Assembly (NCBI GenBank): GCA_964347795.1
Contig: CAYFZX010000001.1
Span: 2,202-66,201 of the forward strand
DNA: 64,000 bases
Reading direction: 5' to 3'
Origin: an uncultured Methanomassiliicoccales archaeon
GTDB lineage: Archaea; Thermoplasmatota; Thermoplasmata; RBG-16-68-12; JAJISG01
Shown here: positions 3,297 through 50,038 of the stretch, one piece after another
Layout: every line of letters starts with the position of its first letter
Position numbering within the stretch: position 1 is the stretch's first letter
Position numbers and translations under genes: made by a program
The notes under the pieces: generated by a model
What the model saw: the letters and a program-made list of their open reading frames with translations, nothing else
Told to the model about the DNA's origin: nothing
Databases searched by the model: none

Positions 3297-4427
3297 TTAT
3301 CGGCTGGCCACTTCCTCGACCTTCTCCTCCGCGATGAAGCCCCCCAGAACGTCACCAGTCCCGTGGAGGACGTCAACCACACCGCTCCAATCCTCCAGTT
3401 GAGCTCTGTTGTCATCCTCGAAGCGTCGGAGTCTCCGCATCATCAGCTCGCGAATCAAGCCAACGCGCTTGGAGGTGGTCACAACGGTCAAGTAGCAGTG
3501 ATGTCCCCGCTGGATGATGACCGATATCTCACCGAAGCTGGCCGTCTTGAGGGTCTGACCCTGAAAGAAGGGCAGGGCATGAGTGAAGAAGTTCTGGAAG
3601 GCGTCGAGGGTGCCCACAAAGATATCATCGTCCACGCTCGTATCTTCTGAGAGGGCGGCCCCGAGCAGGTCGCCTGTCTTATAGGTCAGGTAGACCGCCA
3701 GGGTCTCTCCCTTAAGCGCTTCCCTCAGGTTGAACAGCTGGAGGACGCCGACTCCTCTGCCCCGTCGCAGGGCCAGGAGCAGGGCGATTCCAGGGACCAC
3801 GAGCGTGGCAGAGTACAGAGGGGTGACGCTCTCGTGAAGGAGCGGGTAGTAGGGGTTGGTCAGGAGGGCGAAGGCAATGGCCAACGAGGCGGCTCCCATG
3901 ATGCCCACGATTGCGAAGGACTCCCTCCCCATGGCGTCGAGGGTCAGCAGGGCACCCTGGTGGAGGAGGTAGATCCCAGCCACGATCAGGGCGAGGGTAT
4001 AGAGGAGATAGTGGGTCAGGGCTCCCTCGGCCCAAAGGGGCAGAAACCGGGTCGTCTCCCAGGCAGCCGCCCCACCCGGGACGTTCAGAACCACAAAGTG
4101 AACGGCCACGAAAACGGCAGGGATGGCGAAGACAGCGTCCACCCACGTCTTCCCGTGCACCAGCCATTTGGCGAAGTAGAAGAAGGTGAGGGAAGCCCAC
4201 ACCAGAAAGAAGTGGGCAGGCGGCACCGCGGCGGTGACGTTCCCGAAGGCGCCGAAGGCGAGGGATAACCAGTCCCAGAGGGCGAACGCGGCCATGAGAA
4301 AGGCCGTAGCGGTGAAGGCGATGCCTGTGGATACCCGCAGGGAGCCCCCTCTAGCCTGTAGCATACCGATGGCAGACCACACGACGGCGGAGGCCAGCGG
4401 CGCGTGACTGACGAGGGAGACATCCAT
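3297..4427 (-). CDS. Polytopic membrane protein (about 7-8 TM) with a C-terminal cytoplasmic Roadblock/LC7 (MglB-like) domain
   Basis: The N-terminal ~240 aa are hydrophobic helices. The C-terminal ~110 aa (DIFVGTLDAFQNFF...GEISVIIQRGHHCYLTVVTTSKRVGLIRELMMRRL) have a Roadblock-like pattern. Confidence 0.5.
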   Translation of the reverse strand: MDVSLVSHAPLASAVVWSAIGMLQARGGSLRVSTGIAFTATAFLMAAFALWDWLSLAFGAFGNVTAAVPPAHFFLVWASLTFFYFAKWLVHGKTWVDAVFAIPAVFVAVHFVVLNVPGGAAAWETTRFLPLWAEGALTHYLLYTLALIVAGIYLLHQGALLTLDAMGRESFAIVGIMGAASLAIAFALLTNPYYPLLHESVTPLYSATLVVPGIALLLALRRGRGVGVLQLFNLREALKGETLAVYLTYKTGDLLGAALSEDTSVDDDIFVGTLDAFQNFFTHALPFFQGQTLKTASFGEISVIIQRGHHCYLTVVTTSKRVGLIRELMMRRLRRFEDDNRAQLEDWSGVVDVLHGTGDVLGGFIAEEKVEEVASR

Positions 4428-4573: not shown

Positions 4574-5947
4574 CTAGGCTACCACGATGACCTGGATGTC
4601 CATCACGTTGGTCCCCGTGGGGCCCGTAACGACGGTGTCCCCCATTTCTCGGAAGAAGGCATGGGAATCGTTTCTTGCCAGGTAGTGGAGGGGGTCGAGG
4701 TTCAGGAGCGAACTCCTCCCCGAGGATTCCCCATCGGCGATCGCGCCAGCAGCGTCCGTGAGTCCATCCCTCCCATCGGTGCCGGCGGACAGGAGCACGA
4801 TTCTACGGCCCCGCAATTCCGGAACGGCGGCGAGGACAAGTTCCTGGTTACGCCCTCCGGTGCCCCTTCCCCGGACGCTGACCGTCGTCTCCCCACCTGA
4901 GATCAGGACGCTGGGCGACTTGGCCAGGGACCGCCGACCCTCCAGAGACCGCGCAAGGGCCATGAGGACCTTGGCGACTTCTCTTGCCTCGCCCTGGAGT
5001 TGGCTCGTGAGGATCACGGCGTGATAGCCTCGTTTCTCTCCCTCCGTGGCCGCCGCTTCGCACGCCAGACGGTTCTTCGCCACGAGGACGTTGTGGACCC
5101 TCTGGAAGGCTGGGTCCTTGGCTCCCGGCGTCTCTGGAAGCTCGCCCTTCGATCCAAGCTCCAGCCTGCTCCTTGCAGAGTCGGGGAGTCGGTGCCAGAG
5201 CCTGTAGGTCTCAAGGATTTCCTTCGCCTCCTGGTAGGTGCTCTCATCCGGCACCGTGGGGCCAGAGGCGATGAACGAAAGAGGGTCGCCCACCACGTCA
5301 CTGACGATGAGACCCACCACGGTCGCACCTCGCGAAGCAGCGGCCTGGGCGAGCTGGCCACCCTTGAGGTTGGAGAGGTGCTTCCTGACGGTGTTTTGCC
5401 TCACGATGTCCATGCCACTGAGAAACATCAGATCGGAGACCGCTCGAAGTTCCTCAAGGGGAATGGGCGTATCCTCCAGAAGACTGGACCCGCCACCTGA
5501 CACCAGCACGAGCAGGAGGTCGGATGCGCCACATCTGTTGGCAATCTCCAGGGCGGCTCTCCCCGCCTCAAGGCTGCCCTCATCCGGATGCGGGTGGCCA
5601 CCCCGGAGTATCCGGAACCCGGTCCTCTTCCATCGACTCTTCTCGTGCGTGACCACGAGTCCCTCATCAATGTCCACGACTCCCAGGAGGGCCTCTGCCA
5701 TGGGGAGACTCGCCTTGCCAAACGCAATCATCCGCCGGGAATCGAGAGTCTCCAGGTCGATTTCCAGGCCATCGACGATGAGTGTCTCCCCCCGCCTTCG
5801 CACTCGACTCTTCACGGCCTCCCCTGCATTCGCTGCGGCGAGGGCGGCCTCGAACATCCTAAGGCAGTCCCTCCTCATCCTCTGCAGCTCCGGGGAGGAC
5901 GGGCGGCTGACGAGCCCCTCGAAGTCCTGTATCAACATCGCTTCCAT
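4574..5947 (-). CDS. Glycerate 2-kinase (MOFRL/GckA family)
   Basis: Matches the MOFRL family: ...LLLVLVSGGGSSLLE...VGDPLSFIASGPT...ISGGETTVSVRGRGTGGRNQELVLAA...AGTDGRDG. Confidence 0.85.
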   Translation of the reverse strand: MEAMLIQDFEGLVSRPSSPELQRMRRDCLRMFEAALAAANAGEAVKSRVRRRGETLIVDGLEIDLETLDSRRMIAFGKASLPMAEALLGVVDIDEGLVVTHEKSRWKRTGFRILRGGHPHPDEGSLEAGRAALEIANRCGASDLLLVLVSGGGSSLLEDTPIPLEELRAVSDLMFLSGMDIVRQNTVRKHLSNLKGGQLAQAAASRGATVVGLIVSDVVGDPLSFIASGPTVPDESTYQEAKEILETYRLWHRLPDSARSRLELGSKGELPETPGAKDPAFQRVHNVLVAKNRLACEAAATEGEKRGYHAVILTSQLQGEAREVAKVLMALARSLEGRRSLAKSPSVLISGGETTVSVRGRGTGGRNQELVLAAVPELRGRRIVLLSAGTDGRDGLTDAAGAIADGESSGRSSLLNLDPLHYLARNDSHAFFREMGDTVVTGPTGTNVMDIQVIVVA

Positions 5948-16510: not shown

Positions 16511-17389
16511 GTGAAGGCTGCATTGTACGCTCGCGTTTCCACAGAGGATCAAGCCAAAGAGGGCTTCTCTCTGGACGCCCAGCTTGACCGGCTCCGATCC
16601 TACTGTGACGCCAGGGGCTGGGAAGCTGTCGATGAGTACGTTGACGACGGCTACTCAGGAAGAGACGAGGCGAGGCCGGCATATACGAAAATGCTGGAGG
16701 AGAGGGAACGCTGGGACACGATCCTTGTCCTCAAGATGGATCGCATCCACCGGAACAGTCGAAACTTCATGGAAATGATGGATAGGCTGCGCTCTTGGGA
16801 GAAGGAGTTCACCAGCATGCAGGAGTCCTTGGACACGGGCACCGCGATGGGACGATTCGTCATGGACATCATACAGAGGATCGCTCAACTCGAGAGCGAA
16901 CAGATCGCTGAGAGAGTGTACATCGGCATGTATCAGAAGGCGAAGTCAGGGCAAGGACACCTGGGTTCGCCCGCCCCTTTGGGGTATCGATACGAGGGAG
17001 GCAGGCTGGTGGTAGACGAGGAGAAGGCCCCCTTTGTGCAGGAAGTCTTCCGCAGGTATCTTCAGAGAAACCAACCCCTGCAATGGATCAGTGTCGACCT
17101 CACCCGCAAACTCCGCGGAAGGAGCTGGTCCATATGGTCTGTCCGTTATCTTCTGCAAAATCCCATCTACGCGGGATTTCTCTACTGGGATGGGATTCTG
17201 ACGAAAGGCGACCATGAGCCCCTAGTGAGTCCTCACGAGTACGAGCAGGTATTGCTGTCCTTCATCGAACGGACCCACGCGGATTCGAGCAGGGAGAAGC
17301 TGGAGAGACTGCTCGCCGGCGTTCGGGAGGCGACGGAAGAAGAGAACGGATACCAACAGACTCACGAGGCGGTGGCAGATGAAGTGTGA
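16511..17389 (+). CDS. Large serine recombinase (resolvase catalytic domain + recombinase domain)
   Basis: N-terminus ALYARVSTEDQ with the catalytic Ser, ...LVLKMDRIHRN, then a recombinase domain (YLLQNPIYAGFLYW). GTG start. Confidence 0.8.
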   Translation: MKAALYARVSTEDQAKEGFSLDAQLDRLRSYCDARGWEAVDEYVDDGYSGRDEARPAYTKMLEERERWDTILVLKMDRIHRNSRNFMEMMDRLRSWEKEFTSMQESLDTGTAMGRFVMDIIQRIAQLESEQIAERVYIGMYQKAKSGQGHLGSPAPLGYRYEGGRLVVDEEKAPFVQEVFRRYLQRNQPLQWISVDLTRKLRGRSWSIWSVRYLLQNPIYAGFLYWDGILTKGDHEPLVSPHEYEQVLLSFIERTHADSSREKLERLLAGVREATEEENGYQQTHEAVADEV

Positions 17390-18068
17390 GCGGTGCTGGT
17401 CCGAGGACGAAGTGGATGCACACTGTGCTCCTACTGGACCTCACGACTCAATCGCCTTGTGTCGTGCTTGTCGAGCAGTGGCCCCGAAAGATCCCGTCCT
17501 CTTCGAGAAGATGTTCCTCCAGTTCGCCACGCGGAAGGAGCTGATGCGTCACTTCGATGCGGAGGAAGAGGCGGAGGCCTTGCGCAAGTGGTGCACTGAC
17601 GTGGGCATGGAAATTGGGAAGCTTGGAGCAACCCTTGCCCAAGAGAGCACAGACATGGGTCTGCTTTCGTCACCCAGCCCCTTCGCGGGAGAGACGCCGT
17701 CACAAACGCCCTATGGTTACGCATCCAAGGGAAAGGGTCTCGTGCCTTCTCCCATCGAGGCCGAGGTGATTCGTAGCGTGTTCGACCTCTACCTCCGGGG
17801 CAAGAGCCTCCAAGAGATCCGACAGCTATTGAACAATGCTCAAGTCCCTTCACCGAGGGGGGGCGGTTGGCACCGTTCCACTATCCGATACATCTTGCGC
17901 AACCCGCTCTACGCAGGATCCCGTAGATGGAGAGGCGTTCTCAGAGAGGACTCGCATCGTGCGATAATCGATCCCGACCACTTCAATCAGGTACAGATGA
18001 TGCTGTCGCAGCGCTGCCGAAGGCCCGAACAGAGGGGAGTAGGGGCCGCTCAGTTACGAGTGGTTTGA
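17379..18068 (+). CDS. Zinc-ribbon plus recombinase-domain protein (second, resolvase-less copy of the serine-recombinase accessory domains)
   Basis: N-terminal CxxC...C...CxxC cluster, then EAEVIRSVFDLYLRGKSLQEIRQLL...YILRNPLYAG, which parallels the recombinase domain of the upstream gene. It overlaps that gene by 11 nt. Confidence 0.6.
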   Translation: MKCERCWSEDEVDAHCAPTGPHDSIALCRACRAVAPKDPVLFEKMFLQFATRKELMRHFDAEEEAEALRKWCTDVGMEIGKLGATLAQESTDMGLLSSPSPFAGETPSQTPYGYASKGKGLVPSPIEAEVIRSVFDLYLRGKSLQEIRQLLNNAQVPSPRGGGWHRSTIRYILRNPLYAGSRRWRGVLREDSHRAIIDPDHFNQVQMMLSQRCRRPEQRGVGAAQLRVV

Positions 18069-18252
18069 CATTCGGTTTACCGTATATCAAAGAACCTTTG
18101 TACAAACAATAGTTCCTTAGAATCCTGGGGAACCAACAATACACTTGGTCACCACTGCTCTACCGATATCAACAGAGTTATGGTAGATGTGGTCATCAAT
18201 GCTAACAATAGTATTATAGGTTCCGATGTTGTGCCGTCCCTCAGAGGGTTCC

Positions 18253-18435
18253 ATGGCAGCGAAGAGACTGACGAGCATACAGGTCACGATGAAGACGAGG
18301 GATAGGCTCTATTGGCTCAAGTTTCGAAAGACGTACGACGAGTTCATTAACGAACTCATGGACATCTACGAGGAAGCCAAAGGAGGCGAACTAGGATTCA
18401 AACCTGGAGAAGGGGACAGCCTTCCCACTCCGTAG
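18253..18435 (+). CDS. Small hypothetical protein (possible RHH-like DNA-binding protein) at the AT-rich edge of the element
   Basis: MAAKRLTSIQVTMKTRDRLYWLKFRKTYDEFINELMDIYEE... in an AT-rich context. Its 3' end overlaps the 3' end of rfcL. Confidence 0.3.
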   Translation: MAAKRLTSIQVTMKTRDRLYWLKFRKTYDEFINELMDIYEEAKGGELGFKPGEGDSLPTP

Positions 18436-20885: not shown

Positions 20886-21046
20886 TGAGGGGGTGAGCGG
20901 GTTTGAAATATACCCTCTTTGCGCCCCCGCGAGAATGGGCCTAGAGCTAGTCTCGAGAATCCCCGTTTCCTGGTTTGATTATCAGCAATGATGGGCGTCT
21001 GAAGGGATTGATATAGGCCCGTTTCCACCTTAATCTCGGTTATCGC

Positions 21047-21556
21047 GTGGAGTTCATCGTTCAGCTCCTAGACACCTTGACGGAACCCTACCTGTTCCTC
21101 CCACTGCTGTTCGTCTACAGCATCCTGGTAGCCGTAGTACTCCCCACCCCGGTGGAGGTCGCCCTTGTACCGCTGCTGACACAGCCAGCCCTCTACGGCG
21201 TCGCCGCCGTCACCATTGGACTAGGCAAGGCCGCGGGAAGCTGGATGATCTTCCTAGTGGGCCTTCGAGCCGACAAGCTCATCAAGAAGACCTCCGCCAA
21301 GAACTCCCACGCCAAAAGATTCGTCGACTGGTGCATCAGGTTCGTCTCGAAAACCAAGTACGTCGGGCTCTTCGCCCTTCTAGCCTTGCCCTTCATGTCC
21401 GATACGGTTCCCCTCTACGTGTACTCCCTGTTCAACCACGAGGGAGCGGCCCTCAGCGCACACTACTTCATCGTCACCAACTTCCTCGCGGGAGTCAACA
21501 GGGCCCTCATAGTCCTCATCGCCATCTTAGCCCTCGGAGTCAACTTTCTGCTCTAG
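21047..21556 (+). CDS. Small DedA/VTT-domain-like membrane protein
   Basis: Four or five hydrophobic helices with a VTT-like central segment. GTG start. Confidence 0.45.
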   Translation: MEFIVQLLDTLTEPYLFLPLLFVYSILVAVVLPTPVEVALVPLLTQPALYGVAAVTIGLGKAAGSWMIFLVGLRADKLIKKTSAKNSHAKRFVDWCIRFVSKTKYVGLFALLALPFMSDTVPLYVYSLFNHEGAALSAHYFIVTNFLAGVNRALIVLIAILALGVNFLL

Positions 21557-21916: not shown

Positions 21917-22903
21917 GTGTTTCAAGTCCCCACGGTTCCCAGGGCACAAGAACTCCTCGACAAGGCCTTCCGGCGGACGAAGAAGGCGAGGGGTAAGGGA
22001 CACAACCGATTGGAGAGGCTGAAATCCATTTCGCAATCGCGAGTGGATGCCCTCTGCGAGACGATCAGATCTACCCTCAAGAGGGTCTACAGTTCGTTCC
22101 CGAGCTTCGACCAGTTGCCTCCTTTCTACTGGGAGTTGGTGGACATCGTAGCAGGGATCGATGAGACGAGAAAGGCCCTAGGAACTCTCCGATGGACCTA
22201 TGAGAAGGTCGCCGAGGTGGGCCGAGTGGCCCGGAAGGCCATCCGTCGTGGCCAGAATGTGCCAGAAATCGAGAGGGCTCGGAAGGAGTGCTACGGGAGG
22301 GTGTCTTCCCTGGTGGAGGCCCTGGAGGAGCCGCTCGCGTTTCTTGGAGCGATTCGGGACGACCTCAAGGGGCTCCCCATCGTGGACCCCTCGCACCCAA
22401 CCATGGTGGTAGCGGGTGCCCCGAATGTGGGCAAGAGTCAGCTCGTGCGGGCCACGAGCAGCGGCCGACCAAAGGTCGCCTCCTACCCCTTCACGACCTT
22501 GGACCTGTTCCTGGGACACTTCGACCTCAATGGCACTCGGTGGCAGATAATGGACACGCCCGGGTTGCTGGACAGGCCGATCCACGAGAGAAATGAATTG
22601 GAGAGGAAGGCCCTCGTCGCCCTTCGTCATCTTGCCACGGCAATCGTGTTCTTGCTGGATCCGACCGAGACGTGCGGCTACCCCATGGAAGAGCAGGAGG
22701 CCCTTCTCGCTGAGCTCCGAGACTTGTACCCGGAAACGCCGATCCTGGATGTGGAGAACAAGGCCGACCTGGGCCCGTCGAAGAGCAGCAGACCGCGAAT
22801 CTCCGCACTCACCGGACAGGGAATCGATGAACTGCTTCAGGAGGTCTTGCGAAGGACTACCAGCCCCGCTCCTGGAGACGAGCCTCCGCGGGCAGCTCGG
22901 TGA
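21917..22903 (+). CDS. NOG1-like GTPase (NOG1 N-terminal domain + MMR_HSR1 GTPase)
   Basis: [11 protein letters not shown] (G1), DTPG (G3), NKAD (G4). GTG start. Confidence 0.8.
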
Positions 22904-45731: not shown

Positions 45732-46010
45732 TCGCTATCTCCGCCTGCGGGGAGCGCAGGCGCTCCTCGGCAAGGTCGTGGCGCTTGTTCCGGCGCAGAA
45801 GCATAGCGCCGCAACGCTGGGACTATCGCCCATGGGCGTCTGACCTTGCAGCAGGTTTTGAGGATTCGCCCATATATAATCGTTTGCTAGACCGAATCGC
45901 GACGGCACCCCTCGCTCACCCAAGTTCAAGGGTGGACCATTTTCTTCCCACGATCAGGGACGACGCCCCGTGGACTGGCCGCCGCTATCGCGCCTGATAA
46001 CATCGGCCCA

Positions 46011-46017
46011 ACGTTTA
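46011..46017 (+). promoter_or_regulatory. TTTATAT TATA box about 33 bp upstream of the first small-GTPase ATG
   Basis: AT-rich heptamer. A second strong ATATATAAT lies at 45869-45877 in the same 300-bp intergenic region. Confidence 0.4.
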
Positions 46018-46049
46018 TATGCAGACTCACAAGGTTGCTTCTGAGGGCT

Positions 46050-46613
46050 ATGGGAGCCAAGCGGATCAAGATGAAGGTCTGTCTCGTGGGGGAGGCCGCG
46101 GTCGGCAAGACGAGCCTCATCCGCCGCTTCGTCCACGACAACTTCGACGACAAGTACATCCAGACTCTCGGGACCAAGGTGTCCAAGAAAGAGATTGGCT
46201 TGGACACGCCGGGGGACGATGGTGTCCAGGTGGACATGACCATCTGGGACATCATGGGACAGAAAGGCTTCCGAGAGCTCCTCAAGGAGGCTTACTTCTA
46301 CGGCGCCAAAGGGATCATCGCCGTCTGCGACGTGAGCAGGAAGAACACGCTGGACGACCTGGACGATTGGATTGAGGGCGTTTACAGCGTGACGGGCCGC
46401 ATCCCCATTGAGATCTTCGCCAACAAGGTCGACCTGGAGGACAAGACAGAAGTCGGCAAGGGCGAGGTGGAGCAGTTCTCCAAGGCCTATGACTCTCCCT
46501 TCCATTTCACGAGCGCAAAGACAGGAGAGAACGTGGAGGACGCCTTCAAGGGCTTGGCCCGCCGAATAGCGGAGGAACGGCTGGCCCAGAGCGTCATCCA
46601 AGGCGCGAAGTAG
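46050..46613 (+). CDS. Rab/Ras-like small GTPase, paralog 1 (canonical Gln in G3)
   Basis: G1 LVGEAAVGKTSL, switch-I YIQTLGTKV, G3 WDIMGQ, G4 NKVD, G5 TSAKTGENV. No C-terminal Cys. Confidence 0.85.
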   Translation: MGAKRIKMKVCLVGEAAVGKTSLIRRFVHDNFDDKYIQTLGTKVSKKEIGLDTPGDDGVQVDMTIWDIMGQKGFRELLKEAYFYGAKGIIAVCDVSRKNTLDDLDDWIEGVYSVTGRIPIEIFANKVDLEDKTEVGKGEVEQFSKAYDSPFHFTSAKTGENVEDAFKGLARRIAEERLAQSVIQGAK

Positions 46614-46671
46614 AATCAGCGTTGATACGCTGGTGGGAAGGGTTATCTTCTGCGGGCTCAGAGCAGTCTCG

Positions 46672-47220
46672 ATGGCCATCCTCGAGGCGCCGAAGACGAA
46701 AGTCATCAAGGCCAAGGTCTGTCTGGTGGGGGAGTTCGCCGTCGGCAAGACGAGTCTGGCAAAGCGTTATGTACACAACATCTTCGAGGATCGCTACTTC
46801 GCCACAATCGGCGCGAAGATCACCAAAGCGGAAATCGAACGGGTCGGTGACGATTCTGCTCAGGTCGTCATGACCATCTGGGACATCATGGGAGAGAAGG
46901 GCTTCCGGGAGCTGCTGAAGGAAGCCTACTTCGAAGGGGCCAACGGCACCCTCGCCGTGTGCGACCTCACCAGGGCGGACACGCTGGAGGACCTTCGCGG
47001 TTGGATTGACGCCGTGAAGAGGATCGCCGGGGATGTCCCGATGATCCTCGTGGGGAACAAGGCCGACCTCGAGGAGCAGATGCAGATCCATGAGAAGGAC
47101 GTGGCTAGTTTCGCCAAAGGAGTCGGATACAATCACGTCATGACTAGCGCCAAGACGGGGGAGAATGTTCAGACGGCCTTCAAAGCAATCGCCCGGGAAA
47201 TCGTTCGAATCAGGGATTGA
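46672..47220 (+). CDS. Rab/Ras-like small GTPase, paralog 2 (Glu replaces the catalytic Gln in G3)
   Basis: G1 LVGEFAVGKTSL, G3 WDIMGE, G4 NKAD, G5 TSAKTGENV. Confidence 0.85.
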   Translation: MAILEAPKTKVIKAKVCLVGEFAVGKTSLAKRYVHNIFEDRYFATIGAKITKAEIERVGDDSAQVVMTIWDIMGEKGFRELLKEAYFEGANGTLAVCDLTRADTLEDLRGWIDAVKRIAGDVPMILVGNKADLEEQMQIHEKDVASFAKGVGYNHVMTSAKTGENVQTAFKAIAREIVRIRD

Positions 47221-47346
47221 GGGCTCCTCCTCATCCGGATGGAGCCAGTCATGCCTCAAAGAGGCGGATATCGGCCGTGATAACGGTGTCTATAGCATTT
47301 TATAATCGGAGTCGGAGTAGTCAGACTGCTTCCAAAGGGTGACCAT

Positions 47347-47886
47347 ATGGCTGCGACGGAGAAGATGAAAGTCAAGGTCTGCCTCGTTGGTGAGGGGGCC
47401 GTAGGCAAGACTTGCCTCATCAGGCGGTTCATCCACGACGAGTTCGATGATCGTTACATCTCCACCCTCGGAGCCAAGGTGTCCAAGAAGGAGATTGTCG
47501 TGGACCACGGCTCCGGCGTTGAGGTCGACATGACCATCTGGGACATCATGGGAGAGAAGGGCTTCCGGGAGCTGCTGAAGGAAGCCTATTTCCATGGCGC
47601 CCAGGGAATCCTGGCCGTCTGCGATGTCACCAGGAAGGATACTCTCTACGACCTCCATGACTGGGTGAAGGCCGTGAACAAGGTGACGGGCGACATACCG
47701 ATTCACTTCCTCGCAAACAAGGTCGACTTGGAAGAGCAGGTCAGCTTCGATGAGAAGGATCTCGAGAAAGCGGCCAAGAAGTATACGGCGCCCTACATCT
47801 ACACTAGCGCAAAGACCGGTGAGAATGTCCAGGTTGCCTTCGAGAAGTTGGCGGACATGATCGCCAAACGCATGGTCGCCCCTTAG
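47347..47886 (+). CDS. Rab/Ras-like small GTPase, paralog 3 (Glu in G3)
   Basis: G1 LVGEGAVGKTCL, G3 WDIMGE, G4 NKVD, G5 TSAKTGENV. It has its own TATA (TTTATAAT at 47298-47305). Confidence 0.85.
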   Translation: MAATEKMKVKVCLVGEGAVGKTCLIRRFIHDEFDDRYISTLGAKVSKKEIVVDHGSGVEVDMTIWDIMGEKGFRELLKEAYFHGAQGILAVCDVTRKDTLYDLHDWVKAVNKVTGDIPIHFLANKVDLEEQVSFDEKDLEKAAKKYTAPYIYTSAKTGENVQVAFEKLADMIAKRMVAP

Positions 47887-48061
47887 GATAACCTCCTCCC
47901 ACGACCCCCTGACTTCCCTGGTTCATGGACGTCCAGGGGGCCTCTCTCTTACGGGGTCTACCTTCTGGCAGAGTCCGGTTCGATGCCCCAACCGATTCTT
48001 GTAGAATAAGTTTAATAGGATGGAGGTCCTATTCAAATTAGTTGTAGAGGGATGGCGCCAG

Positions 48062-50038
48062 ATGGCTGGGAAGGGTTCTGCAGACACCGCTGACCAACGC
48101 CTACCATCTCTTGAGAAGTGGGCCAAGGGCCAGACCATCGAGTCCACCGCGGAGATCGACATTCCTGAGCAGCTGGTGGACCAAGTCATCGGTCAGGAGG
48201 AAGCCGTTGAGGTCTCCAAGAAGGCGGCGGACCAGAAGCGGCACGTCATGCTTATCGGCGACCCAGGCACGGGCAAGTCCATGCTCGCTCGGGCCATGTC
48301 GGAATTGCTTCCCCGAGAAGAGCTTCAGGACATCATAGTCTACCACAATCCTGAGGACTCCAACGAGCCGAAGATCCGTATCGTCCCCGCCGGGAAGGGC
48401 AAGGAGATTGTCCACGCCCACAAGGCTGACGCCTTGCGTCGGAAGGAGCAAAGGGCCTCGATGCTGACAACCATCATCGTGGTCATCATCATCATGTCAG
48501 CGGCACTGGCCTTCTTGATCCAACCTCCGAACCCCATGGTCTTGCTCTTCGGCATCCTGGTGGCGGCCATCCTCTTCATGGCCACCCGTTACGCCGGTAA
48601 CAAGCAGGATATGCTTGTCGTACCGAAGCTCTTGGTGGGTCACGACCCGGACGATATGCCCCCGTTCATTGACGCCACGGGGTCTCACGCAGGTGCGTTG
48701 CTGGGTGATGTGAGACACGACCCGTTCCAGTCGGGTGGATTGGAAACCCCGGCCCACGAGAGGGTCGAGGCCGGCTCCATTCACAAGTCCCACAAGGGAG
48801 TCCTCTTCATCGATGAAATCAACGTCCTCCGCCTGGAGAGCCAGCAGAGTCTCTTGACGGCCCTCCAGGAGAAGAAGTTCAGTATCGTTGGCCAGAGCGA
48901 GAGGAGCGCTGGCGCCATGGTCAAAACGGAGGCTGTGCCGTGTGATTTCATCCTGGTGGCTGCGGGCAACCTCGACGCTTTGGCGGGCATGCATCCCGCC
49001 CTTCGGTCAAGGATTCGCGGGTACGGTTATGAGGTCTTTGTCAAGAGCACGATGCCCGACAACCTGGACAACCGTCGAAGGATGATTCGTTTCACGGCCC
49101 AGGAGGTCTTCAAGGACGGAAAGATCCCGCACTTCGACATGGCGGGGGTCGTGGAGATCGTCCGAGAGGCTCAGAGGAGGGCAGGGCGAAGGGGACAGCT
49201 CACCCTGAGGCTCCGGGAGCTTGGCGGCCTGATTCGAGTGGCAGGGGATATAGCCCGGGAGCAAGGTGCACCCTTGGCCTCGGCAGAGCACGTACTCGCA
49301 GCCAAGAGGATGGCAAGAAGCCTGGAGCAACAGGTCGCCGACAGGTTCATCGAACGCAGGCGGGACTACAAGACGTTTGTCACAGAGGGCGCGCTAGTCG
49401 GGATTGTCAATGGGCTGGCCGTCTTGAACGCGGACCCAAGCATGGCCGAATTCTCTGGCATTGTCCTGCCCATCGTGGCGGAGGTGACTCCTGCCCAGAG
49501 CAAGAACGACGGTAAGATCATCGCCACTGGCCGACTGGGTGAGATTGCCAAGGAGGCGGTGCAGAACGTCTCCGCCCTGATCAAGAAGTACACGGGCGAG
49601 GACATCAGCAACTACGACATCCACGTGCAGTTCGTAGGAACCCACGAGGGTGTGGAAGGGGACAGCGCGTCCATATCCGTTGCGACCGCGGTCATCTCGG
49701 CTCTGGAGGAGGTAGACGTCGACCAGACTGTGGCCATGACAGGATCCCTAAGCATCAGAGGGCAGGTCCTCCCCGTGGGTGGCATCACCGCGAAGATAGA
49801 GGCCGCCGCAGACATGGGCTTCAGGAAGGTCCTGATCCCCAAGGCCAACGCCAACGACGTCCTCATCGAAAGCAAGTACGTCGGACGAGTCGAGATCGAG
49901 CCCGTGGAAACGCTGAAGGACGTCCTTGACCACGCCCTGGTGGGCCCAAGGAAGAGCGGGCTCATCAGCAAGCTGACCTCCATGGTTTCACCCAGACCCA
50001 AACCAGTCGTCGGGCACGACAGAGCGGTCCCCCAATAG
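48062..50038 (+). CDS. lon: Archaeal membrane-bound Lon protease LonB
   Basis: AAA+ Walker [10 protein letters not shown] with an inserted TM hairpin ([17 protein letters not shown]...[12 protein letters not shown]). C-terminal Lon protease domain with catalytic Ser in [15 protein letters not shown] and Lys in KIEAA. Confidence 0.9.

Follow-up and report, generated by a model that had tools for sequence, protein, structure and literature searches.

Introduction

Little is known about Ras/Rab-like GTPases outside Asgard archaea, and no Thermoplasmata member has been characterised. Surkont & Pereira-Leal 2016 (PMC4915359) reported Rab-like proteins from Aciduliprofundum and a Thermoplasmatales archaeon; their survey found a single divergent copy in each Thermoplasmata genome, and no array is described there. 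Rup2 of Thermoproteaceae occurs in up to six copies per genome, with no conserved gene neighbourhood found (Wuichet & Sogaard-Andersen 2014, PMC4316618), and MglA, whose gene lies next to mglB, has no Asp in its G3 box (PMC4316618). In Haloferax, vesicle formation is driven by the small GTPase ArvA, to which ArvB (DUF2073) and ArvC (DUF2072) are coupled (PMC10927574). In one published analysis, eukaryotic Rabs group with Ras and Rho, and not with any archaeal group (bioRxiv 10.1101/2024.02.28.582541). As for the catalytic Gln, its replacement by Glu in H-Ras Q61E raised intrinsic GTPase activity (PMC2987813, PMC10515638).

Here we describe three adjacent GTPase genes, G1, G2 and G3, in a 64-kb window (the whole stretch of DNA that was analysed) whose host is an uncultured Thermoplasmata archaeon. 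On balance, we consider it fairly probable that the locus is a lineage-specific, co-regulated trio of single-domain Rab-like GTPase switches, with a Gln-type G1 and Glu-using G2 and G3. As an addition to the known archaeal Rab-like GTPases, the array is only moderately surprising.

The three genes and their protein family

The genes are adjacent paralogs on the forward strand with one GTPase domain each.

46050 to 46613, forward strand: G1, Rab-like small GTPase, 187 aa, WDIMGQ (canonical Gln)
46672 to 47220, forward strand: G2, Rab-like GTPase, 182 aa from the ATG at 46672 (195 aa from the GTG at 46633), WDIMGE
47347 to 47886, forward strand: G3, Rab-like GTPase, 179 aa, WDIMGE, G1 box GEGAVGKTC

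The initial annotation had read them as a tandem trio of Rab-like small GTPases in an archaeal genome, with all Ras-superfamily boxes, Gln in the first paralog and Glu in the other two, and no C-terminal Cys or prenylation signal. All of this was borne out. Ras was the best Pfam family (E 1.8e-36, 1.9e-38 and 2.5e-38 for G1, G2 and G3), and its profile PF00071 scored 125.6, 132.0 and 131.7 bits (cut-off 21.6), with positions 1-161 of 162 aligned. The G1 box GxxxxGK[ST], the switch-I Thr, the G3 box DxxG, the G4 box NKxD and the G5 box SAK were complete in all three proteins, and the G1-G5 boxes were intact throughout the family (220/220 members at 77 loci). The C-termini stop 5-15 residues past helix alpha5 and contain no Cys. 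Identity between the paralogs was only 55-63%, yet switch II was near-invariant.

When a profile of the three paralogs was compared with the PDB, the best 60 matches were all Rabs, and the Thorarchaeota Rab 7ezb was one of the two top matches (E 1.2e-32). G3 alone matched Rab18 at 101 bits, the first non-Rab being Ran/Gsp1 at 85 bits. The AF2 model of G3 (pLDDT 77, with low confidence in the P-loop and switch I, pLDDT 43-54) gave a Ras-type fold, which Foldseek matched to Rab27, Rab1, Rab8 and K-Ras at TM 0.75-0.81 and E about 1e-14. Judged by their sequences, the three proteins are true Ras-superfamily GTPases, nearest in similarity to Rabs. The motifs RabF1-F5, which Pereira-Leal and Seabra reportedly gave in 2000 as IGVDF, KLQIW, RFRSIT, YYRGA and LVYDIT, were only partly matched: the aligned G3 segments read LGAKV, DMTIW, GFRELL, YFHGA and AVCDVT, with roughly 1-3 matches per motif. 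In a neighbour-joining tree without support values, the whole Thermoplasmatota family sat apart from Rab18, Sec4 and H-Ras as its own clade.

Other families fitted less well. Rag/Gtr proteins join the G domain to a C-terminal Roadblock domain, whereas the trio proteins (179-187 aa) consist of the G domain alone; the weak Gtr1_RagA match (32-34 bits) was confined to the G-domain part of that profile, positions 1-127 of 232. The Roc profile matched at 93-96 bits, but the COR domain is missing, as the proteins end after the G domain, which sets them apart from ROCO proteins. The Arf profile reached 40-48 bits, compared with 126-132 bits for Ras. The Rfam scan of the whole window returned zero matches, and a literature search on this GTPase family found nothing.

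Comparison with described GTPases

The trio resembles the archaeal Rab-like/RasL proteins (Lokiarchaeum, Thorarchaeota 7ezb) in its single G domain, Rab similarity, canonical G1-G5 boxes and short C-terminus without a prenylatable Cys, and in having no recognisable Rab GEF/GAP genes nearby. It differs from them in the fixed array of 3-4 genes, the combination of one Gln with invariant Glu paralogs, the common operator described below and the hydrophobic G3 box WDIMG, where they have WDTAG. With eukaryotic Rabs (Rab8, Rab1, Sec4, Rab18, Rab21) it shares about 28-33% identity over the G domain, a TM of about 0.8 and the G5 context SAKTGxNV; unlike them, it has no hypervariable tail or Cys, matches the RabF motifs only in part and carries Glu for Gln in two paralogs.

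Rup2 is likewise archaeal, lineage-restricted, highly duplicated and Ras-like in its motifs, without MglB coupling. By the published description of Rup2, the trio is set apart by its phylum and by its fixed order, neighbour and operator. MglA/MglB is also a prokaryotic Ras-superfamily switch, and membership of this family had been named beforehand as one alternative. The trio does not fit it, since the G3 boxes have the Asp and mglB is missing beside the array, which is flanked by LonB, an NMNAT-like gene and the L3 operon. ArvA is, like the trio proteins, a euryarchaeal single-domain Ras-superfamily GTPase with a conserved local gene arrangement. By profile, however, ArvA is Arf-like and the trio Ras/Rab-like, and the trio genes are followed by further GTPases and then LonB, without arvB or arvC, which places them outside the ArvA type.

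Conservation of the array and its host

The comparisons rest on the loci of relatives, as the exact G3 sequence of the window matched no contig on record. An array of 3-4 copies in fixed order was found in 62 species-level genomes of uncultured Thermoplasmata, and the order Q-E-E(-x) was the same across the 62 arrays. The first-position gene carried Gln in 70/70 loci, followed by the Glu-type; Glu was present in all second-position genes (G2) of three-copy arrays and in 50/50 G3 orthologs. Four-copy arrays contained extra paralogs with D, N, G or A at this position, so the Q/E position can be relaxed. In the neighbour-joining tree (without support values), the Gln genes at the first position fell into one tight group, whether their clade had three copies or four. 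By these sequence comparisons the array is old, its order of Gln-type and then Glu-types predating the split of the sampled clades. The earlier suggestion that the Q/E split reflects subfunctionalisation gained support from a split that is both fixed and ancient.

All three genes are under strong purifying selection (dN/dS 0.04-0.26). G1 is the most conserved paralog, with 64% of positions at least 90% conserved and dN/dS of 0.06-0.14, G2 the fastest-evolving (0.09-0.26), and G3 showed 0.04-0.09.

Such genes could also be an artefact, brought in by contamination with eukaryotic or Asgard DNA, by recent horizontal transfer or as part of a defence island. The best-scoring solved structures are eukaryotic Rabs, and GC falls slightly to 0.573 at 46-48 kb; this dip is accounted for by the three AT-rich promoters. 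Codon GC3 of the array genes (0.78-0.84) matches that found elsewhere on the contig, and about 60 Thermoplasmata MAGs share the synteny; contamination, already judged unlikely in the initial annotation, is therefore excluded. The family forms its own clade in the unsupported neighbour-joining tree, and PADLOC defence profiles gave nothing significant, with a single marginal LeoA match in G2 (E 0.001, 16 bits). We give an origin of this kind next to no credence.

The homolog search returned 2,241 homologs, of which the named ones came from Thermoplasmata/Thermoplasmatota and several were titled 'Rab family GTPase'. Together with the Rab-like proteins reported in 2016 (PMC4915359), this showed that the initial description of such arrays as unusual outside Asgard archaea was overstated. 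The conserved array itself likewise runs against the view that only Asgard archaea have eukaryote-like small GTPases in arrays. Distant singleton members of the family sit in unrelated gene contexts.

Gln and Glu at the catalytic position

The Glu paralogs had been proposed to be GTP-locked or to lack hydrolysis. In its strongest form, this proposal makes G2 and G3 hydrolysis-dead scaffolds or partners and G1 the sole working switch. Both proteins do lack the canonical Gln, and the extra paralogs of four-copy arrays depart from it further. In Ras, a bulky residue at the G12 position blocks GAP-stimulated hydrolysis, and G2 has Phe there (V, F, S, T or I in orthologs). However, H-Ras Q61E hydrolyses GTP faster, not slower, and neither G2 nor G3 departs from Glu in about 50 orthologs each, where lost catalysis would be expected to allow drift; on these two grounds the term 'GTP-locked' is unsupported. 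The gamma-phosphate sensors (switch-I Thr and DxxG Gly) are also intact. We regard dead G2 and G3 as possible, though rather unlikely.

The constancy of Glu in the orthologs of both G2 and G3, without drift, suggests that it may serve as a working carboxylate. Like H-Ras Q61E, G2 and G3 combine Glu at the catalytic Gln position with an otherwise canonical Ras-type active site. The H-Ras protein is an engineered mutant, whereas the Glu of G2 and G3 is natural and invariant; G2 and G3 also differ from it by Ile-Met in the DxxG box, and G2 by its bulky residue at the G12 position.

Operators and promoters

The promoter regions of the three genes contain the following elements.

45986 to 46001, no strand assigned: operator 1, palindrome TATCGCGCCTGATAAC, centre 24.5 nt 5' of the G1 TATA box
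46014 to 46020, forward strand: G1 TATA-like box TTTATAT, about 33 nt 5' of the ATG at 46050; AACGTTTATAT in relatives
46614 to 46627, no strand assigned: operator 2, degenerate palindrome AATCAGCGTTGATA, immediately 3' of the G1 stop codon
46643 to 46649, forward strand: G2 weak TATA-like element TTATCTT, centre about 26 nt 5' of the ATG at 46672
47269 to 47284, no strand assigned: operator 3, palindrome TATCGGCCGTGATAAC, exact match
47298 to 47306, forward strand: G3 TATA box TTTTATAAT; TTTTATAA in all relatives compared

Each gene has its own TATA box, as first annotated, the one at 46643 being weak; its position is kept in relatives, where the sequence is clearer. We infer a near-leaderless geometry for the G2 start, and a Shine-Dalgarno-like GGGTGA lies ahead of G3 at 47338-47343.

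Common to all three genes is a palindrome, TATC-N6-GATA(AC), 24-27 nt upstream of the TATA box. Exact TATC-N6-GATA occurred at 2 sites in the 64-kb window, compared with 0.21 expected. In three-copy arrays, the operator (at most 1 mismatch) preceded, at a fixed position, the first gene in 45/48, the second in 49/49 and the third in 50/50 cases, and in four-copy arrays it preceded the first gene in 12/12. Operator 2 is a perfect TATC-N6-GATA in two relatives (L016 and L041). The background density of operator sites was 0.12 per kb; 147 of the 160 exact copies in 842 kb lay at arrays, and the TATA centre was 24-27 nt downstream of the operator in 134/182 sites. The operator also stands ahead of distant family members in L082 and L083. 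Because each gene has its own TATA box together with the common palindrome, the trio is, judging from these sequence elements, a set of separate but co-regulated transcription units, newly described here.

A candidate regulator, a 64-aa ORF following a doubled palindrome (L067, L068), was set aside, as it occurred at five loci of one four-copy clade only; it is absent from the window and matched no Pfam family significantly. Elsewhere in the window, the VTT/DedA-like membrane-protein gene at 21047 has a degenerate operator copy, of which only ATC-N6-GA and the TATA box are kept (four genomes). With the operator so reduced, this gene is a weak candidate for the regulon.

Neighbouring genes

The trio might act as ArvA or eukaryotic Arf/Rab proteins do, in membrane remodelling or vesicle formation. 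Its sequence is closest to Rabs, a euryarchaeal GTPase, ArvA, does drive vesicle formation (PMC10927574), and the degenerate operator of the VTT/DedA-like gene is partly kept in three relatives. Against this, the proteins have neither a lipidation signal nor a C-terminal polybasic stretch, the Arf-specific N-terminal positions of Pfam beyond the G domain are unmatched, ArvB/ArvC-type (DUF2073/DUF2072) neighbours are absent with Ras as best Pfam family, and the VTT-gene operator is reduced to ATC-N6-GA. We find a vesicle role improbable.

Downstream of the array lies a protease gene.

48020 to 50038, forward strand: LonB membrane protease, Pfam Lon_C and LonB_AAA-LID, with its own AT-rich promoter region and without operator

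Judged from ortholog N-termini, the true LonB start is probably the ATG at 48062. Of the 59 arrays whose downstream sequence extends for at least 1.5 kb, 57 have LonB as the next gene on their strand, and two (L038 and L052) lack it there. The adjacency was kept where the upstream neighbour varied between clades (L3 operon, OTCase or KaiC-like), including L003, the closest relative, which has lost the L3 neighbour. Such constancy would fit a functional coupling between the array and membrane LonB, in which the GTPases would gate or target the protease or its substrates. However, LonB lacks the operator, and the NMNAT-like and YdjM-like genes beyond it are likewise syntenic, so the adjacency may be plain conserved gene order in a block that is simply stable. 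Its own promoter region, the two arrays without LonB, the position of distant family members and second-site paralogs away from LonB, and a literature search that found no GTPase-LonB link also speak against coupling, which we hold to be unlikely.

Upstream, an L3 homologue on the opposite strand lay close by in about 37/51 arrays with enough upstream sequence (34 by script; L007, L008 and L011 were added from coordinates). A role in ribosome biogenesis or translation comes into view because the array and the L3-L4 ribosomal protein operon are divergently transcribed, and four-copy arrays are also found close to the SecY end of the ribosomal cluster. However, the L3 adjacency is lost in L003 and in all four-copy arrays, with LonB retained; known ribosome-assembly GTPase families gave only marginal matches, far below their cut-offs; and the window has a proper NOG1 GTPase gene at another site (21917-22903). 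A ribosomal role is accordingly very improbable.

In the neighbourhoods inspected, no GAP, GEF or effector genes were adjacent to the array. Second-site paralogs had an A24 peptidase, an amino-acid permease-Usp fusion, a GNAT protein and large surface proteins as neighbours, with no consistent partner. KaiC-like and DUF835 genes were rejected as partners: they flank arrays in one clade, and the window has no homolog.

A proposed model

In the favoured reading of a co-regulated trio of switches, a dimeric transcription factor would bind the palindrome and switch the three genes on together. The palindrome lies upstream of BRE/TATA, about -50 from the predicted start site, which is an activator-like placement, and it is from this position only that we infer activation. 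The products would be soluble, non-lipidated GTP/GDP switches. One partner common to all may be bound through the almost invariant switch II/alpha2 segment WDIMGxKGFRELLKEAYF, and separate partners through a few paralog-specific fixed residues, namely those before the switch-I Thr (Q/A/S), at the Q/E position and after AYF (Y/E/H). G1 would be a conventional Gln-dependent switch, while G2 and G3 may use the invariant Glu as a functional carboxylate, giving different kinetics or GAP dependence and not dead proteins; G2, with its bulky residue at the Ras-G12 position, would probably be the slowest. The output could be a membrane or proteostasis process, the best lead though a weak one, because membrane-bound LonB is the constant neighbour.

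With near-identical switch II but differing catalytic residue and Ras-G12 position, the trio is a natural experiment, and these natural proteins make it testable whether a carboxylate can replace Gln61 (the Ras Q61E paradox). In complete genomes of the clade, the common operator offers a way to the regulator and the other members of the regulon, and hence to the function.

A distant membrane protein

The gene at 3297-4427 had been proposed to encode a membrane protein with a Roadblock-like domain, the kind of partner that such GTPases use. Sequence searches did not confirm the Roadblock part of this proposal: neither the whole 376-aa ORF nor its C-terminal 143 aa matched Robl_LC7 in Pfam up to E<=10. 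No sign of linkage to the array, 42 kb apart, was seen, and the gene was rejected as a carrier of the array operator, since its conserved upstream block ATAATCAGGTCG[GC]ATGAAATAAATA keeps only one half-site and the TATA spacing is different. A low-confidence model of the protein gave 7 TM helices and a domain that is longin-like by fold only. As a long shot, the trio might be the output stage of a Thermoplasmata-specific pathway, in which this 7TM-longin receptor-like protein would recruit and exchange the non-lipidated switches at the membrane, and/or the switches would act on LonB, the Glu paralogs forming a GAP-independent, Glu-based hydrolysis clock. If true, this would be a receptor-longin-small GTPase circuit outside Asgard archaea and eukaryotes, in one regulon through the TATC-N6-GATA operator.

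Three tandem Rab-like GTPases with one Gln and two Glu

The three GTPase genes are arranged in tandem on the forward strand, at the positions reported in the initial annotation:

46050-46613, + strand: ORF of G1, the first gene
46672-47220, + strand: ORF of G2, the second gene, with GTG at 46633 as alternative start
47347-47886, + strand: ORF of G3, the third gene

All three proteins matched the Pfam Ras profile (PF00071) end to end (E 1.8e-36 to 1.9e-38), with Roc (~1e-27) and Arf (1e-10 to 1e-12) below it, and NCBIfam returned the generic small_GTP domain only. Their pairwise identity is 55-63%, and every G box, the sequence motifs of the Ras superfamily, is intact in each. The G3 box reads WDIMGQ in protein G1 and WDIMGE in proteins G2 and G3; when aligned by HMMER to Rab18 and Sec4, this Glu falls on the Gln of their WDTAGQ, the known catalytic position. 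The AlphaFold2 model of protein G3 (mean pLDDT 77, P-loop and switch I low) has a Ras/Rab fold, with TM ~0.8 to Rab27, Rab1 and Rab8 and K-Ras nearly equal. Profile, motifs and fold all place the trio in the Ras superfamily, confirming what had been observed earlier and showing G1, G2 and G3 to be Rab-like GTPases predicted to be competent for nucleotide binding.

Compared with Rabs as defined by the RabF motifs, the trio matches these motifs poorly, and it has no prenylation tail (C-terminal Cys in 0/3 proteins). Because of these two differences, and because no archaeal group is sister to eukaryotic Rabs in the analysis of bioRxiv 10.1101/2024.02.28.582541, the proteins are not Rabs in the strict sense, though their best matches are Rabs. 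MglA identity was ruled out by the Asp in the G3 box and the absence of MglB, and Rag or Roc identity by the absence of a C-terminal domain. In contrast to ArvA, the trio resembles Ras more than Arf and lacks ArvB/C, which ruled out ArvA identity; membrane remodelling of the ArvA or Rab-like kind is an improbable function. The nearest described proteins are the 'Rab-like' ones that Surkont & Pereira-Leal (PMC4915359) reported from archaea, among them single sequences on long branches from Aciduliprofundum and a Thermoplasmatales archaeon, and the multi-copy Rup2 group of Thermoproteaceae (PMC4316618) is conceptually near.

The family is large and found in Thermoplasmatota

Among 5.8 billion proteins searched, 2,241 were homologs, of which the named ones came from Thermoplasmata, Thermoplasmatota or 'Methanobacteriota' MAGs, several already called 'Rab family GTPase' or 'small GTP-binding protein'. 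With one genome per species, the locus scan yielded 187 matching stretches in 77 loci, all from MAGs of the same three names (soil, aquifer and sediment bins). At the level of representatives, 357 clusters were found at E<=1e-30, with named members again from Thermoplasmatota; many share a G3 box of the same unusual, hydrophobic type, WD[IV][MLI]G, with Q/E/S/N/D/H or others next. Since the named homologs and the matching loci all belong to Thermoplasmatota-type MAGs, we read the window as a genuine Thermoplasmata contig and the family as confined, as far as sampled, to this phylum. Third-codon-position GC of the trio (0.78-0.84) resembles that of the remaining contig. That the array is an artefact or a defence system has a negligible chance of being correct.

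The array is ordered and under purifying selection

Across the fetched loci we counted 220 family members, and tandem same-strand runs of three or four copies were present at 62 loci. The first-position gene carries Gln at 70/70 loci, and genes 2 and 3 of three-copy arrays always carry Glu; four-copy arrays showed Q-E-E-E, Q-E-E-N, Q-E-E-D, Q-E-D-N, Q-E-A-E and Q-E-G-D. In clustering and an NJ tree, first-position genes of every clade formed one tight group, and G3 of the window grouped with genes that stand last in three-copy arrays and second in one four-copy clade. This grouping by position across clades indicates that the duplications are older than the split of these clades. The dN/dS values against six relatives were 0.06-0.14 for G1, 0.09-0.26 for G2 and 0.04-0.09 for G3, and are rough because dS is close to saturation. 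Constraint is strongest on G1, where 64% of positions reach at least 90% conservation (G2, 36%). The segment WDIMGxKGFRELLKEAYF (switch II and helix alpha2) is nearly invariant in all paralogs, and no more than five positions combine fixation within each paralog with a difference among paralogs; these include the residue preceding the switch-I Thr (Q/A/S), the Q/E site and the residue after AYF (Y/E/H). Thus the array is conserved, ordered and under purifying selection.

The Glu is more likely a working residue than a dead one

G2 and G3 retain Glu without exception in ~50 orthologs each; at the same position the extra paralogs of four-copy arrays have drifted to D/N/G/A, and residues vary widely across the larger family. 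Both gamma-phosphate sensors, the switch-I Thr and the DxxG Gly, are intact. In H-Ras, Q61E increases intrinsic GTPase activity, a classical result as cited in PMC2987813 and PMC10515638. The initial annotation had proposed altered or absent hydrolysis and 'GTP-locked partners' for the Glu paralogs; given the faster Q61E enzyme, the invariant Glu and the intact sensing residues, a locked state is unlikely, and we favour a working carboxylate over loss of activity. The Glu could serve as general base, in metal/water positioning, or in a salt bridge to a partner. The Ras-G12 position in G2 orthologs is never Gly (V/F/S/T/I), and G2, with a bulky residue there, is the member most likely to be slow or insensitive to GAPs.

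A shared operator precedes each gene

Alignment of upstream regions revealed a palindrome, TATC-N6-GATA(AC), kept 5' of each of the three genes and followed by a TATA-like box; in a more distant clade its form is GTTATC-N6-GATAAC. Its copies in the window are:

45986-46001: operator of G1; TATA 46014-46020
46614-46627: operator of G2, degenerate AATC...GATA, abutting the G1 stop; weak TATA 46643-46649
47269-47284: operator of G3; TATA 47298-47306

The exact pattern occurs in the 64 kb only at the G1 and G3 sites (0.21 expected). Allowing one mismatch in a fixed 100-nt search window, the operator was present at genes 1, 2 and 3 of three-copy arrays in 45/48, 49/49 and 50/50 cases and at the first gene of four-copy arrays in 12/12, and at 0/11 second-site paralogs; the background rate is 0.12 sites per kb. 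Arrays make up 20% of the 842 kb of loci and hold 147 of the 160 exact sites; off-array exact sites include two 5' of distant family GTPases (L082, L083) and one 5' of a KaiC-like gene. Over 182 sites the consensus reads wTATCa-N4-tGATAAC, and in 134 of them the centre of the TATA box lies 24-27 nt downstream. Since its arms are short and its spacer variable, the operator is best read as the putative binding site of a dimeric transcription factor. Archaeal activators usually bind upstream of BRE/TATA, at about -50, and we infer that the operator, lying there, is in an activator-like position. With its own TATA and the shared operator, each gene appears to be a separate transcription unit under common control, which supports the separate TATA boxes noted initially and extends them by a new finding, the shared operator.

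A one-mismatch copy, TATCAGCAATGATG (20980-20993), followed by TATA-like GATATAG, lies upstream of a gene for a 169-aa membrane protein (21047-21556, + strand) with a sub-threshold VTT/DedA match (PF09335, E 3.5e-4) and the JGI name 'YqaA with SNARE-associated domain'. Its regulon membership is uncertain, because three relatives keep only ATC-N6-GA and the TATA box. Operator and TATA box also precede distant family GTPases of other Thermoplasmatota and a KaiC-like ATPase of L082 (L082 14360-14373 and 7866-7879, L083 7897-7910), and in one four-copy clade (L059-L068) KaiC-like and 7TM-DUF835 genes adjoin the array divergently, upstream; the regulon may thus predate the array and reach beyond it. 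A doubled overlapping palindrome with TATATATAAT (L067 1985-2015, L068 1984-2014, one four-copy clade) precedes a conserved 64-aa ORF (MRKGSEKSQYNIRIDAKLLQRYKDF...; L062 2116-2310) ~2.7 kb upstream of the array. This ORF, at five loci only, absent from the window and with no significant Pfam family, could encode an autoregulated small DNA-binding protein, a candidate regulator.

LonB is a more stable neighbour than L3

Upstream of the array, on the opposite strand, is an L3-L4-L23-L2 ribosomal protein operon; downstream are the membrane protease gene LonB, an NMNAT-like cytidylyltransferase and a YdjM-like membrane protein. Among arrays with at least 1.5 kb of downstream sequence, LonB is the next same-strand gene in 57/59 (exceptions L038 and L052), including four-copy clades with different upstream neighbours (SecY and OTCase, or KaiC-like and 7TM-DUF835 proteins). 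An L3 homologue is close upstream in ~37/51 arrays (34 by script plus L007, L008 and L011 from coordinates); the closest relative, L003, keeps LonB and has no L3 homologue within 2.7 kb upstream. As LonB adjacency is kept where upstream neighbours change or L3 is missing, gene order points to the array-LonB link as the stabler. That the trio regulates LonB would fit this adjacency, but genes past LonB are also syntenic and LonB has no operator site, so a functional link is only a lead and such regulation is rather improbable. The window also encodes a canonical archaeal NOG1-type ribosome-biogenesis GTPase (21917-22903, + strand), so that a ribosome role of the trio is less needed, and we regard it as very improbable.

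The LonB ORF is listed from ATG 48020; ortholog N-termini (M..DLPPI.EW.KGQ) suggest a start at ATG 48062, which would place AT-rich GAATAAGTTTAATAGG (48003-48018) ~45-60 nt upstream, as promoter. At 47917-47951, 30 nt past the G3 stop, an inverted repeat (CCCTGG-N10-CCAGGG) with a C/T-rich run behind it may be a terminator between array and LonB.

A proposed co-regulated array of Gln and Glu switches

We propose, as the reading we moderately favour overall, a co-regulated Rab-like array in which one switch is canonical, with Gln, and two are Glu variants that hydrolyse GTP differently; confidence is high for the parts shown and low for the output. One regulator would switch on all three genes together, and the proteins would be soluble switches sharing one partner via switch II, the few differing switch-I and alpha2 residues giving each paralog different partners as well. 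The output is possibly membrane- or LonB-related. The sequence-level part of the initial annotation stood and the remainder was only partly right: archaeal Rab-like GTPases are already known, this phylum included, so 'unusual outside Asgard' overstates the case. The fixed co-regulated Q-E-E array and the invariant natural Glu at the catalytic position are new, and literature searches returned no paper on the array, the Q/E pattern, the operator or the LonB link. For specialists the trio is a modest surprise, and as a system it is tidy and testable.

Paralogs outside the array and other features

Second-site paralogs in the same genomes comprise a Ser type and E-E pairs (L072, L074, L076, L077, L079, about 4938-5546; L073, L075), beside A24 peptidase, amino-acid permease-Usp fusion, GNAT and large surface proteins. 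A single WDIMGS paralog, without operator, lies between the A24 (prepilin/preflagellin-type) peptidase and the permease-Usp fusion; a WDIMGE-WDIMGE pair, also without operator, lies between the GNAT protein and a 917-956-aa protein with a hydrophobic N-terminal stretch and no Pfam match. Genes adjoining family members at all loci encode no Roadblock, longin, TBC, DENN or other recognisable regulator. Distant singletons have unrelated gene contexts. At L080 (6298-8570) a distant WDVMGT member has a 4-nt overlap with the stop of the preceding gene, whose 568-aa product carries C-terminal TPR repeats; this suggests that the two are translationally coupled, with the TPR protein as a possible partner. 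In a related cluster, GTPase-TPR fusions of 242-276 aa occur (L082).

Elsewhere in the window, a large serine recombinase is seemingly split into two overlapping ORFs (16511-18068, + strand):

16511-17389, + strand: Resolvase and Recombinase
17379-18068, + strand: Recombinase

GC dips around it (14-20 kb, 0.57 vs 0.60-0.63), an AT-rich gap follows (18068-18391), and the region may be a decayed integrated element.
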